A DNA stretch of 5,190 nucleotides from Escherichia coli (GTDB lineage Bacteria; Pseudomonadota; Gammaproteobacteria; Enterobacterales; Enterobacteriaceae). This document shows positions 2,023 through 5,190 of this stretch, piece by piece (the first letter of the stretch is position 1; every line of letters starts with the position of its first letter). The DNA lies in the NCBI RefSeq assembly GCF_003334815.1, contig NZ_QOWO01000074.1. One strand, written 5' to 3'. The notes below the pieces were generated by a model that saw only the letters and a program-made list of their open reading frames with translations, was not told the origin of the DNA and did no database searches. The translations under genes and the position numbers were made by a program.

Positions 2023-2081
2023 CAGCTTATCCACAGCATTTTGCGCACGGTTCTGTGAATAAAATACCTGGTTACCCAGGC

Positions 2082-2093
2082 CGTGCCGGCACG
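2082..2093. promoter_or_regulatory. Perfect 12-bp palindrome CGTGCCGGCACG (candidate operator or structure)
   Basis: Self-complementary 12-mer in the GC-rich leader upstream of the intron-interrupted gene. No known factor assigned. Confidence 0.25.
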
Positions 2094-2189
2094 TTAACCG
2101 GGCTGCATCCGATGCAAGTGTGTCGCTGTCGCCGGCCTCCTCACCCGGTCACGTTTCGTCGTTCCTCCTCCACGCGCTGCGGCTTCGGG

Positions 2190-2233
2190 GCCGCACCTGC
2201 ATTCGTATGCGGTCGCCCGGTTACAGGTGCGGC
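2190..2233 (+). repeat. Inverted repeat / stem-loop, 10-bp perfect stem (GCCGCACCTG ... CAGGTGCGGC) with 24-nt loop
   Basis: 2190..2199 is the exact reverse complement of 2224..2233. A second small hairpin (ggcct/aggcc, 2236..2250) follows. Both sit in the 5' leader about 40-80 nt upstream of the ATG at 2272; no T-run follows, so not a typical intrinsic terminator. Confidence 0.35.
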
Positions 2234-2271
2234 ACGGCCTGATGGAGGCCGCATGTGAGAGGAGAATTCCC

Positions 2272-2292
2272 ATGCCAAACTGGTGCTCGAAT
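2272..2292 (+). CDS. Host gene exon 1 (7 codons, MPNWCSN) of an intron-interrupted hypothetical protein
   Basis: Strong Shine-Dalgarno GAGAGGAG (2257..2264) 7 nt before ATG at 2272. The 7 codons end exactly at the inferred intron 5' junction and join in frame to the long open frame beginning at 4699. Depends on the inferred intron boundaries. Confidence 0.4.
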
Positions 2293-2900
2293 GTGCGACA
2301 TGAAGTCGTCTGAATAATTGTTCCAGCGGAGTTCGATTCCGTCAGGGAACCTGATGTTCCGTCATCAGTAGCCTACTGACACATGCGTCACTGGTAACGG
2401 TGGGGTGTGAAGCTGTCAGGACAATGAAACCGGATCTTCGGATCGCATGAAACCGTGAGGTTACATGTAATCTGCCAGCATCAGGCGGAGGAGGTCTAGG
2501 CTCGGTAGCATGACTAACATATGTGAACTGCTGAAGCGTCGTTAACCAGAACAAGCCAAAGATGCTGACAGGCTTGAACCAAAAGGTATGTGGTTGGTTA
2601 CTCCTCTGTTTGCTAGGGGTACACGGACAATAAACCACCGGTGTTGTGAGCAGAGTCTAACCTACTGTTGTTATTCAGGTGGAACATGGTAAGCCCGTAT
2701 CGCTGCCTCGTGAGGCAGGTTAACCGCAAGGGATACTGTTGGCGGTGCGGGTAAAAGAAGGTGGAAAAAGCGAATGCCAGTCTGTAATGGACCGGATAAG
2801 GGTTGAGCCCGGCAACATTACCCTACGCGAAAGCGGGCAGACTTCCACTGGGTCTTTCATTACGAGAGAGTTTGAGTAATCTTCCAGAAAGGAAAAGCAG

Positions 2901-4625
2901 ATGACTGAGCAGGCTACAACCTGTAAAGGTGCGTCCTTACTTAACGGTGACTCCTGGCACAGTATCAACTGGCGTCAGTGCTATCGGGAAGTGCGGAGAC
3001 TGCAAGCGCGTATCGTAAAGGCAACACGAGAAGGTAAACATGGCAAGGTCAAATCCTTGCAATGGATACTGACTCACTCGTTTAGTGGCAGAGCAGTTGC
3101 TGTCAGACGAGTTACAGAGAATAGCGGGAAACGTACTCCTGGGGTTGATGGTCAGACATGGTCTTCCCCGGAGGTTAAATTTCTTGCTATTAACCTGCTG
3201 AAACGGCGTGGTTACAAACCACAGCCACTTAAGCGGGTTTATATACCTAAGTCAAATGGGAAGTCTCGTCCCCTTGGGATACCCACTATGAAGGATCGGG
3301 CGATGCAGGCGTTGTATTTGCTGGCTCTTGAGCCCGTTGCTGAAGTCACTGCTGACCAGAGATCCTTCGGCTTTCGGACTGGAAGGTCTACTGCAGATGC
3401 GATAGCACAGTGCTTCTGTGTTCTTGCGCAGAAAACATCCGCTGAATGGGTGCTTGAGGGGGATATACGGGGATGCTTTGACAATATATCTCATCAATGG
3501 CTAATCGATAACACCTCAACAGACAGACAAATCCTGACAAAGTGGCTTAAAGCGGGTTACAGGGAAAATGGGCAGTTATTCCCTGTAAATTCAGGAACTC
3601 CTCAGGGGGGAATAATTTCTCCTGTACTGGCTAACATTGCTCTGGATGGACTGGAGGCGCTTCTTGCGTCGGAGTTTAAAAAGAGAACAGTCAAGGGACG
3701 ATTGGTTAACCCGAAAGTTAACTATGTGAGATATGCTGATGATTTTATTATCACTGGAGAGTCAAAAGAACTTCTTGAGTCTCAGGTATTACCCGTCGTC
3801 AGGCGGTTTATGGCTGAAAGAGGATTAATGCTTTCTCCTGAAAAGACGAAAATCACACATATCGAGGAAGGATTTGATTTTCTTGGACAGAACATTCGCA
3901 AATATGGCGGTAAGATGCTGATCAAACCCTCTAAAGCCAATGTCAGTTCCTTTTTAAAGAAAATACGCGCTGTAATCAAAGGCAACAAAGCTATGGATCA
4001 GCTTACGTTGATCCGCATGCTGAACCCAATGATCAAAGGGTGGGCGGCTTACCATCAACACATTGTGGCCAAGGTCGCATTTAACAAAGTTGACAATGAG
4101 ATCTGGCTGGCTTTATGGCGTTGGGCCGTTCGGCGTCATCCCAATAAGGGAAAGAAGTGGATTCGGAAAAGATATTTCCATCAACAAGGTGCCCGAAACT
4201 GGTCTTTCTCCGTGGCTACCGGAGAACTCCTTGCCAACGGTAAGCCTCAGTATGCAAATCTGAGGAAAGCAATCGATACGCCTATCAACCGGTTTAAACC
4301 GATTAAAATCGCAGCTAATCCGTTCGATCCTCAATGGGAGATGTACTTTGAGGAGCGTTGTGCAGACAAAATGCGGCACAAACTGCAAGGACGGAAAAAG
4401 CTCATTCAAATCTGGTTTGAGCAGCGGGGCCGATGCCCCATATGTGATGAGAGGATTACATCTGATTCCCAGTGGCAGGTTCATCACATCATACGGCGAG
4501 TCGATGGAGGGAGCGACTGCCTCTCCAATTTGATTATGCTGCATCCGATGTGTCACACACTTGTTCATGCGAAAGGTATACATGTAGTGAAACCGGCTCA
4601 TGAGAGTGGGCTTAGAAAGGCTTGA
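2901..4625 (+). CDS. Group II intron-encoded protein: reverse transcriptase / maturase / HNH endonuclease, 574 aa
   Basis: ORF-track protein has RT motifs (RVYIPKSNGKSRPLGIPTMKDR, GCFDNISH, SGTPQGGIISPVLANIAL, VRYADDFII), a maturase X region (MIKGWAAYHQH) and a C-terminal HNH/Cys module (CPICDERI...HHIIRRVDGG...CHTLVH). SD AAGGA 7 nt upstream. Stop overlaps the first bases of domain V. Confidence 0.95.
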   Translation: MTEQATTCKGASLLNGDSWHSINWRQCYREVRRLQARIVKATREGKHGKVKSLQWILTHSFSGRAVAVRRVTENSGKRTPGVDGQTWSSPEVKFLAINLLKRRGYKPQPLKRVYIPKSNGKSRPLGIPTMKDRAMQALYLLALEPVAEVTADQRSFGFRTGRSTADAIAQCFCVLAQKTSAEWVLEGDIRGCFDNISHQWLIDNTSTDRQILTKWLKAGYRENGQLFPVNSGTPQGGIISPVLANIALDGLEALLASEFKKRTVKGRLVNPKVNYVRYADDFIITGESKELLESQVLPVVRRFMAERGLMLSPEKTKITHIEEGFDFLGQNIRKYGGKMLIKPSKANVSSFLKKIRAVIKGNKAMDQLTLIRMLNPMIKGWAAYHQHIVAKVAFNKVDNEIWLALWRWAVRRHPNKGKKWIRKRYFHQQGARNWSFSVATGELLANGKPQYANLRKAIDTPINRFKPIKIAANPFDPQWEMYFEERCADKMRHKLQGRKKLIQIWFEQRGRCPICDERITSDSQWQVHHIIRRVDGGSDCLSNLIMLHPMCHTLVHAKGIHVVKPAHESGLRKA

Positions 4626-4698
4626 GCCGTATGCCGGGAAACTGGCACGTACGGTTCTTAGGGGGCGGTGATGCAGTAATGCATCACTGCTACCCGAT
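4624..4698 (+). ncRNA. Group II intron catalytic domain V and domain VI (branch-point helix) up to the 3' splice site
   Basis: DV: GAGCCGUAUGCCGG-GAAA-CUGGCACGUACGGUUC (4624..4657). DVI: 15-bp helix 4661..4675 / 4680..4695 with GUAA loop and a single unpaired A at 4692, six nt before the ...GAU 3' end. Confidence 0.8.
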
Positions 4699-5190
4699 CG
4701 TATGTATTTTTCTGGTGAACCAGCACAGATCGCTGAGATTAAACGACTGGCCAGCGGTGCAGTCACACCGCTTTATCGCCGCGCCACAAATGAAGGTATT
4801 CAGCTGTTTCTGGCCGGAAGTGCCGGACTTCTGCAGATCACTGAAAATATCCGCTCTGAGCAGTGCCCCGGAGTGACGGCTGCCGGACGTGGTGCTGTAT
4901 CACCGGAAAATATCGCGTTCACCCGCTGGCTGACACACCTGCAGAACGGTGTACTGCTGGATGAGCAAAACTGCCTGATGCTGCATGAACTCTGGCTGCA
5001 GAGCGGTACTGGACAGCGTCGCTGGGAAGAGTTACCGGATGATGTCAGGGAAACTATCACTGTGCATTTCACCGCAAAAAGAGGTGACTGGTGTGACATC
5101 TGGGGTAACGAGGATGTATCGGTGTGGTGGAACCGTCTGTGTGACAACGTACTGCCGGAAAAAACCATGCCGTTTGACCTGCTGACGGTT
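4699..5190 (+). CDS. Host gene exon 2: hypothetical protein of unknown function (partial; continues beyond the window end)
   Basis: Frame beginning at 4699 (CGT ATG TAT ...) is open for 164 codons to the window edge: R-MYFSGEPAQIAEIKRLASGAVTPLYRRATNEGIQLFLAGSAGLL...WWNRLCDNVLPEKTMPFDLLTV. Not in the ORF track because it has no stop in the window. Composition is protein-like. I recognise no family from memory. Confidence 0.55.

Follow-up and report, generated by a model that had tools for sequence, protein, structure and literature searches.

The window, as we call the whole stretch of 5,190 nucleotides that was analysed (Escherichia coli contig NZ_QOWO01000074.1), is the far end of the leading region of an IncI1/IncF conjugative plasmid, and it contains impCAB, a hairpin and then a DUF1281 gene split by a group II intron. 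The genes impB/umuC, impA/umuD and impC/dinI are encoded on the minus strand, divergent from the DUF1281 gene. Their promoter was identified at 1948-1919, beside a LexA-type box (CTGT-N8-ACAG); promoter and box together occupy 1901-1948, about 150 bp from the hairpin. A perfect DnaA box is found inside an inverted repeat at 2004-2038, some 40 nt from the hairpin. The DUF1281 gene belongs to family 27 among the families enriched in leading regions (Samuel et al., 2024, PMC11541004). It has a Shine-Dalgarno sequence, GAGAGGAG, at 2257-2264 and an ATG at 2272, both checked by script, and the following structure:

2272-2292, plus strand: exon 1 of the DUF1281 gene (yfdA/yubB/yccB-type), seven codons encoding MPNWCSN (annotation of pESBL, CP082483)
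2293-4698, plus strand: group II intron, with an RT/maturase ORF at 2901-4625 (Rfam RF02012, RF00029)
4699-5190, plus strand: exon 2 of the DUF1281 gene, running off the window (92.9% identical to F over 494 nt)

The intact exon junction is visible in uninterrupted copies of the gene, that of F among them, and pO157 carries a group II intron at the same position that is at least 99% identical over the first 708 nt. The plasmid pESBL (IncI1, NC_018659.1) has an identical copy of the hairpin element upstream of its own DUF1281 gene (L004 770-959; here and below L004 refers to pESBL and L071 to F). In that plasmid DUF1281, the M.EcoGIX methylase, klcA, ssb, psiB, psiA and ardA follow each other in this order, all co-oriented, towards nikA/oriT. 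From this orientation, and using also the map of F, we infer that the minus strand of the window is the transferred strand and the template for the leading genes. The same element is present in F with two substitutions, and both F and pO157 carry the module directly after sopAB.

The element is very widespread. About 4,800 plasmid records have a match of at least 80% identity to a 401-nt query containing it (1900-2300). The element and the leader are 98.8-100% identical to those of F and pO157, against 87% for the 90 nt upstream and 93% for exon 2 (Fisher p 0.002 to 2e-6), although this local excess of identity could correspond to a recombination patch rather than to selection.

The long hairpin and its parts

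The region upstream of the interrupted gene had been described in an earlier note, made from the sequence alone, as a GC-rich and highly structured leader, in which mutually exclusive hairpins next to the ribosome-binding site could act as a riboregulatory leader or as a protein operator. The individual observations were all reproduced by script. Between 2101 and 2250 the fraction of G and C is 0.68, compared with 0.51 in the window as a whole and 0.425 in 200 nt on the left side (1851-2050). The perfect 12-bp palindrome at 2082-2093 (CGTGCCGGCACG) is there, as is the perfect 10-bp stem formed by 2190-2199 (GCCGCACCTG) and 2224-2233 (CAGGTGCGGC) around a loop of 24 nt. So are the GCGGC/GCCGC hairpin within 2179-2194 and the small hairpin GGCC-TGATGGA-GGCC at 2236-2250, just 5' of the Shine-Dalgarno sequence. 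However, these features are fragments of one larger dyad, which the note had missed. In their minimum free energy (MFE) folds, the RNA and both DNA strands each form one long imperfect hairpin at approximately 2077-2241, and an inverted-repeat search gave arms of 27 nt each (2077-2103 and 2215-2241) that are 81% complementary. The RNA folding of 2060-2280 that the note had proposed did yield a stable structure (-99 kcal/mol, z = -3.2), but its MFE is this one long hairpin. The parts that could be distinguished in the hairpin and at its base are the following:

2077-2241, minus strand: long imperfect hairpin of the transferred strand, 165 nt (DNA folds, inverted repeat, leave-one-out covariance model, covariation)
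2198-2241, minus strand: near (5') arm, putative template strand of a pseudo-duplex promoter (pair table)
2229-2241 paired with 2077-2090, minus strand: basal stem (the basal helix is invariant or covarying in the family)
2118-2197, minus strand: apical part, with the family-conserved motifs GAAGCCGCAG (plus-strand 2177-2186) and CCGGGTGAGGAG (plus-strand 2137-2148) (alignments)
2066-2081, minus strand: small terminator-like hairpin followed by a T run, just past the base of the big hairpin (terminator search)

The apical part (2118-2197) is shorter than in other members of the family described below, and both substitutions that separate the element from that of F, the only ones, are located there. 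As to the stability of the long hairpin, it stands out only to a moderate degree (z = -2.6 to -3.2, with 2-4 of 200 shuffled sequences folding equally well), and the case for something more than chance is therefore made by homology and covariation, not by stability. The search for intrinsic terminators gave no site at all on the plus strand, and the sole site found was the small one on the minus strand (2081-2066), outside the main hairpin. This terminator-like hairpin is not conserved among the other family members. Speculatively, it could stop leftward transcription from the -35 and -10 boxes (see below) once the DNA is double-stranded.

Homology to the class 2 hairpins of leading regions

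In leading regions, genes are expressed from promoters active only on single-stranded DNA (ssDNA): a hairpin of the entering strand reconstitutes the -35 and -10 boxes, and the synthesis of the complementary strand silences it (Masai and Arai, 1997; Couturier et al., 2023, PMC9849209; Samuel et al., 2024, PMC11541004). To screen pESBL, Wen et al. (2025, PMC12672017) folded its DNA in sliding windows of 300 nt with a threshold of < -75 kcal/mol, and they mapped six start sites of this plasmid by 5' RACE. They distinguished in it class 1 (ssi1-3, Frpo-like), class 2 (5' of klcA and of ardA) and class 3 (5' of M.EcoGIX). The induced operons were six in pESBL and four in F; not all the leading genes were induced, and the DUF1281 gene goes unmentioned in the text of that paper. 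The four operons of F have four ssDNA promoters. One of them, ssp2 (class 2), is a replication roadblock that stalls complementary-strand synthesis (preprint 10.64898/2026.01.09.698686), and no roadblock activity was seen for another, the ssDNA promoter hairpin ssp3. The class 2 element of F was found independently by another group, as 'Frpo3', with no promoter found upstream of the next gene cluster beyond ardB. The class 2 promoters are described in Wen et al. (2025, PMC12672017) and in two preprints (10.64898/2026.01.09.698686 and 10.1101/2025.04.03.647016).

It is to these class 2 hairpins that the element is related. By BLASTN, its minus strand matches those of klcA and ardA in pESBL at 74% identity over 73 nt (E 8e-5), and the same searches link it to the candidates Frpo'4, Frpo*1 and Frpo*3 of Samuel et al. 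A scan with the shared motif GCCCGGYTAMNNTNNNGKCACGGC, using one genome per species, retrieved 66 loci, mostly from Enterobacterales (Pantoea, Erwinia, Enterobacter, Klebsiella, Buttiauxella and relatives). The hairpins at these loci are 159-231 nt long and followed, after 29-44 nt, by the start codons of genes for KlcA/ArdB-like, ArdA-like and methylase proteins; the 33 nt that separate the hairpin base from the ATG in the window are inside this range.

We have built a covariance model from 13 short-form members (hairpins from Pantoea, Erwinia and Rahnella plasmids), with the copy of the window excluded. This leave-one-out model detected the window at 2074-2244 of the minus strand, over the full model length, with 79.8 bits (E ~6e-15), and the plus strand with 29.2 bits. 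The class 2 promoters of pESBL (P_klcA and P_ardA) scored 64-65 bits and ssp2 of F 62 bits. When 49 sources were searched with the model, 81 non-overlapping sites were found, 76 of them distinct and often several per plasmid; the family has at least 76 distinct members in Enterobacterales plasmids, including P_klcA and P_ardA of pESBL and ssp2 of F.

A covariation test across homologues had been named in the earlier note as the arbiter, and once run it revealed that the long-range pairing covaries. RNAalifold predicted 47 pairs in an alignment of 14 sequences, with compensatory double changes in 19 of the 47. In this alignment 95.5% of the paired cells could pair, against 32-40% when the 3' partners were slid by 1-3 columns, and none of 500 shuffles reached the observed pairing or covariation. 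Across the 76 members the paired cells included 143 G·T pairs versus 24 A·C mismatches, a count biased towards the minus strand because the 76-member alignment was fitted to the minus-strand model. Read with this bias in mind, the excess favours the minus strand as the folded strand under selection. Judging from sequence and structure, we are highly confident that the element belongs to the class-2-type family, of which it is a further and apparently undescribed hairpin. We have found no paper describing the element or any promoter for yfdA/DUF1281.

The element and the class 2 promoters (P_klcA, P_ardA and ssp2) share the strand and the position relative to a leading-region gene, the -35, 15-nt spacer and -10 arrangement (with boxes assigned here from family conservation), the GC content (68%, against 68.6% reported for the F element) and detection by one covariance model. 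They also share a series of sequence blocks, GCCGTG...CGGGCG...CAGG.GCG...GAAGCCGCA...GGGTGAG...CTTGCAT...GCCCGGYTAnnnT...GGCACGGC. On the other hand, the element is 165 nt long instead of ~222-231 nt, with a truncated apical part, is less stable (-70.5 versus -81 to -84 kcal/mol in 300-nt windows), is only ~74% identical over the best 73 nt and precedes a DUF1281 gene rather than klcA or ardA. It also lacks the conserved flanking motif GGAGCGCAGCGACATCC found beside many family members. In size (168-171 nt) and architecture the closest relatives are the short-form hairpins, the very set whose model detects the element. These candidate promoters precede methylase and KlcA-like genes, and they carry a conserved apical sub-hairpin, GCGGACTGAATGTCCCGC, that is missing from the window copy. 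Two of them are the low-certainty candidates Frpo*1 and Frpo*3 (Samuel et al., 2024, PMC11541004, Supplementary Table 2).

When the screen of Wen et al. was repeated on the pESBL transferred strand, the windows below -75 kcal/mol fell into exactly six clusters. These are the six published sites, and the element studied here is absent:

L004 1971-2270: directly before the methylase, class 3 (-91.8 kcal/mol; z = -6.1 for the 1940-2285 fold)
L004 4541-4840: klcA
L004 6351-6650: ssb
L004 11481-11780: ardA
L004 12651-12950 and L004 16101-16400: the remaining clusters

The folding energy of the element, -70.5 kcal/mol in pESBL and -70.0 in F, does not reach the threshold of -75 kcal/mol, which is an operational filter and not a property that defines these promoters. 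With such a sub-threshold energy the element may be weak or inactive as a promoter.

Pairwise BLASTN among the pESBL hairpins reproduced the published class structure, and this allowed us to place the element relative to the other classes. Its identity with the published class 3 'M.EcoGIX promoter' was rejected, the hairpin 5' of the methylase being the one at L004 1971-2270 in pESBL and ssp3 (L071 7851-8150) in F, where the screen gave an equivalent result. Class 3 membership was equally rejected, for lack of a BLASTN match. The class 3 hairpins have the same orientation and principle and are found in the same leading region, ~1 kb away, but their sequence is unrelated and they are much larger and more stable, as the values listed above for pESBL illustrate. 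Membership in class 1, the Frpo/ssi type (Frpo1 (ssiD) and Frpo2 of F, ssi1-3 of ColIb-P9; Masai and Arai, 1997; Bates et al., 1999; Couturier et al., 2023, PMC9849209), was rejected as well. The element has no BLASTN match to the ssi-type elements of pESBL, and ssiD and ssiE of F map elsewhere (class 1 in F is at L071 12267-12614 and 17657-18004). Class 1 hairpins are ~330 nt long, have an A/T-rich apical promoter part and show no detectable sequence similarity to the element. By analogy, what would be shared with them is the principle, i.e., a transferred-strand hairpin of the leading region that rebuilds the -35 and -10 boxes and is active only before the complement is made.

A different hairpin can stand in front of a gene of the same family. 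At a divergent DUF1281 locus in a Citrobacter IncFIA plasmid (46% amino acid identity) the upstream hairpin is of the class 3 type (76% over 223 nt), and no class-2-type member was found upstream of that gene (one distant locus was examined, tblastn being dominated by near-identical plasmids). The presence of a class-3-type hairpin in the same place suggests that hairpin promoter modules have been exchanged in front of the DUF1281 family.

Putative promoter boxes and candidate functions

A way to assign a function to the hairpin is to look at the conservation of its two arms. The features assigned from this conservation, and the leader predicted from their geometry, are:

2112-2117, minus strand: -35-like hexamer TTGCAT on the far (3') arm (position script; family conservation)
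2091-2096, minus strand: -10-like hexamer TAACGT (family consensus TAnnGT), 15 nt after the -35 (conservation across 76 members)
2234-2271, plus strand: predicted mRNA leader of 38 nt, with the hairpin 2236-2250 and the Shine-Dalgarno sequence 2257-2264 (box geometry)

The CTTG and TAnnGT columns on the 3' arm carry 1.3-2.0 bits across the 76 members. In the -35 box CTT is invariant and the G near-invariant, and in the -10 box the T, the A and the final T reach 1.8-2.0 bits, with 0.1-1.2 bits for the facing loop columns of the 5' arm. In the consensus structure of the family, the second T of TTGCAT forms a G·T pair (13 of the 14 sequences, alignment columns 48/143). In the same consensus a helix is closed by the T of the -10 hexamer, whose other bases lie in an internal loop. 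According to this structure the non-template -10 would be presented already unpaired. Sigma-70 reads the -10 element at positions -11 and -7, and an unpaired presentation fits with this. In the MFE fold of the window copy, the -10 hexamer is partly to mostly base-paired. The spacer of 15 nt is short for sigma-70.

Since the boxes sit on the far arm, they aim at the DUF1281 gene only when the hairpin is folded. In duplex DNA they aim at impC, into the terminator-like hairpin at 2081-2066. With +1 placed ~7 nt after the -10 hexamer, the start is predicted at about A2234 (give or take a few nucleotides), and if this is right the transcribed leader would comprise no more than ~38 nt of the region. 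As to a conventional promoter for the DUF1281 gene, no promoter-like site was found on the plus strand between 1850 and 2320, and the one such site detected was the divergent imp promoter.

The structure, its strand, its family membership, the conserved boxes, their position and their orientation were obtained directly, and taken together they make us favour, with moderate confidence, the view that the GC-rich region is a hairpin promoter working only on single-stranded DNA and not an RNA leader. Polymerase binding, the start site, the activity and its shut-off would then be predicted as follows. In conjugation the minus strand of the window would enter the recipient as single-stranded DNA, and the stretch from 2241 down to 2077 would fold into the 165-nt imperfect hairpin. 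The far arm would act as the non-template strand (TTGCAT, 15 nt, TAACGT) and the near arm as the template, with the -10 hexamer pre-melted in the internal loop if the family consensus applies (it is partly paired in the window copy). The sigma-70 RNA polymerase of the host would bind this pseudo-duplex, start near A2234 and leave through the base of the hairpin into the DUF1281 gene, and the transcript would include the group II intron, 21 nt into the ORF. Synthesis of the complementary strand would flatten the hairpin to duplex, leaving the boxes aimed away from the gene, and with no plus-strand promoter the expression would stop. The net effect would be a transient, 'zygotic' expression of the DUF1281 gene. 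By analogy with ssp2 of F, the hairpin may also slow complementary-strand synthesis.

The main rival to the ssDNA promoter reading takes up this last property. The element could be a decayed or repurposed relative of class 2 that folds in the transferred strand without useful transcription and has a structural role. It could make the synthesis of the complementary strand pause at the distal limit of the leading region, or it could provide a priming site in combination with the DnaA-box hairpin close by. Its stability under the published threshold and its absence from the published induced operons would both be expected in this case, and the related ssp2 of F is a demonstrated roadblock (preprint 10.64898/2026.01.09.698686). 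Along the same lines, there is a perfect DnaA box in an inverted repeat at ~40 nt (2004-2038), and every leading-region locus of F, the site beside yfdA included, converts to double strand later than predicted. However, a purely structural element would not need promoter boxes, and here they are intact and match the family consensus, at a spacing to the Shine-Dalgarno sequence and ATG that agrees with the other family copies. The element and leader are moreover better conserved than both flanks, and the lack of roadblock activity in ssp3 indicates that stable hairpins are not automatically barriers. We consider a solely structural role rather unlikely.

The regulatory modes put forward in the earlier note are much less probable still. 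It was right in suspecting a cis-regulatory structure for the interrupted gene, but neither of the mechanisms it proposed agrees with the data. An mRNA leader, whose alternative hairpins would control the translation or stability of the DUF1281 transcript, appears very improbable to us, even if the RNA of 2060-2280 folds stably, the Shine-Dalgarno sequence has the small hairpin 2236-2250 right beside it and locally competing stems do exist (inverted-repeat search). Those local alternative stems, which the note had taken for mutually exclusive hairpins, are not conserved in the relatives. The plus strand has no sigma-70 promoter upstream and the neighbouring gene is divergent, while the Rfam scan that had been suggested returned no RNA family for the region: with E up to 1 over the whole window only group II intron families appeared (2350-2496 and within 4615-4698), and 2040-2290 was empty. 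The conservation of the structure is specific to the minus strand. Both the model scores of the two strands (79.8 versus 29.2 bits) and the 143 G·T pairs against 24 A·C mismatches, with the bias already mentioned, speak against the plus strand or RNA as the folded molecule. An operator in double-stranded DNA, in which a dimeric regulator, encoded by the plasmid or the host, would sit on the palindromes and repress either the DUF1281 gene or the divergent imp operon, has in its favour the perfect 12-bp palindrome (2082-2093) and the strong overall dyad symmetry. In the alignments, though, neither this palindrome nor the 10-bp local stem is conserved in the relatives; what is conserved instead is the long-range pairing and the -35/-10-like boxes of the far arm, and the compensatory changes keep the pairing, not the sequence. 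With the imp promoter and its LexA-type box ~150 bp off (1901-1948), and a 165-bp dyad with conserved internal loops being unlike an operator, we regard this last explanation as scarcely credible.

Significance for leading regions

The ssDNA promoters determine which genes of a plasmid are switched on within minutes of its conjugative transfer, anti-restriction, anti-SOS and methylase genes among them, and these early functions give them a central part in the spread of resistance plasmids. In the published maps F has four of these promoters and pESBL six, and the most distal conserved leading gene, DUF1281/yfdA, is left without an assigned promoter. The element may be the missing one, a plausible promoter of DUF1281/yfdA in very common IncF and IncI plasmids that escaped a screen based on an energy threshold. 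Such a threshold misses real members of the family, while a model that combines sequence and structure finds them without a cut-off. The analysis of the family (76 members) also places the -10 hexamer in an internal loop and finds the module in front of different genes.

A more far-reaching scenario can be put forward only tentatively, and we hold it to be possible rather than probable. In it the hairpin would be an active and overlooked ssDNA promoter, the fifth in F and the seventh in pESBL, that marks the far boundary of the zygotic leading region. In the window plasmid and in pO157 the intron begins ~59 nt past the predicted start, and each entry into a host would then be accompanied by a burst of intron RNA and reverse transcriptase, at a time when single-stranded target DNA is abundant. 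If the copy is active, DUF1281 would be a zygotically expressed protein, and the expression of a group II intron would be linked to conjugation.

Surroundings of the main hairpin

The sequence next to the imperfect hairpin (2077-2241, minus strand), a class-2-type predicted single-stranded-DNA promoter, holds several further signals.

1901-1948, LexA-type box CTGT-N8-ACAG within this interval, just downstream of the impCAB promoter
1948-1919, minus strand, divergent impCAB promoter TTGACT-18-TAGAAT
2004-2038, 9-bp inverted repeat with arms TGCTGTGGA (2004-2012) and TCCACAGCA (2030-2038)
2027-2035, perfect DnaA box TTATCCACA, within the inverted repeat
2066-2081, minus strand, terminator-like hairpin GCCTGGGTAACCAGGT followed by ATTTTATT, directly past the base of the main hairpin

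The divergent impCAB genes are an ordinary mutagenesis operon under SOS regulation. The inverted repeat with the DnaA box, some 40 nt away from where the main hairpin has its base, is also found in F and pO157, and partially (a 29-nt match) in the Citrobacter IncFIA plasmid L072. The repeat is reminiscent of those DnaA-box hairpins that serve for priming on single-stranded DNA. Speculatively, the terminator-like hairpin could halt leftward transcription from the -35/-10 boxes when the DNA is in duplex form; it is not conserved among the other family members, i.e., the plasmid hairpins akin to the main one.

Many hairpins of the transferred strand, from different classes, are followed 40-70 nt past their 3' end by a conserved motif, GGAGCGCAGCGACATCCTT. 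Examples are the 3' flanks of family members in the loci L023, L060, L044 and L007, and also the end of the class 3 element of pESBL. The motif is missing beside the window element (2077-2241).

Group II intron and probably vector-derived copies

The DUF1281 ORF is interrupted 21 nt from its beginning.

2293-4698, group II intron

The C-terminus of its RT/maturase is HNH-like. The first 708 nt of the intron appear at no less than 99% identity in 182 plasmid records, and pO157 of EDL933 carries it at the identical site, between the hairpin and DUF1281. The predicted start of the single-stranded-DNA promoter lies ~59 nt before the intron, which might therefore be expressed upon plasmid entry.

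Assemblies of Raphidiopsis, Aeromicrobium and Alicyclobacillus also contain copies of the element's left half.

L041, 10057-10210
L059, 2629-2783
L013, 10248-10402

These copies stop at about window position 2134, equivalent to the SalI site (GTCGAC) of F, and they are most likely leftover mini-F-derived BAC or fosmid vector sequence.

Class 3 hairpins and the exchange of promoter modules

An ORF annotated as "hypothetical protein" lies between DUF1281 and the methylase gene in three loci.

L004 (pESBL), 1895-2206
L071 (F), 7785-8090
L073, 6816-7121

This ORF shares sequence with the class 3 hairpin, whose stability is very high (in pESBL, -91.8 kcal/mol in the 300-nt screen and z = -6.1 for the fold of 1940-2285), and is probably a spurious gene call. 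Two class-3-type hairpins are present in the Citrobacter plasmid.

L072, 2690-3003
L072, 4700-5068

One precedes a divergent DUF1281 gene and the other the methylase, which shows that promoter modules have been duplicated and swapped among leading-region genes.
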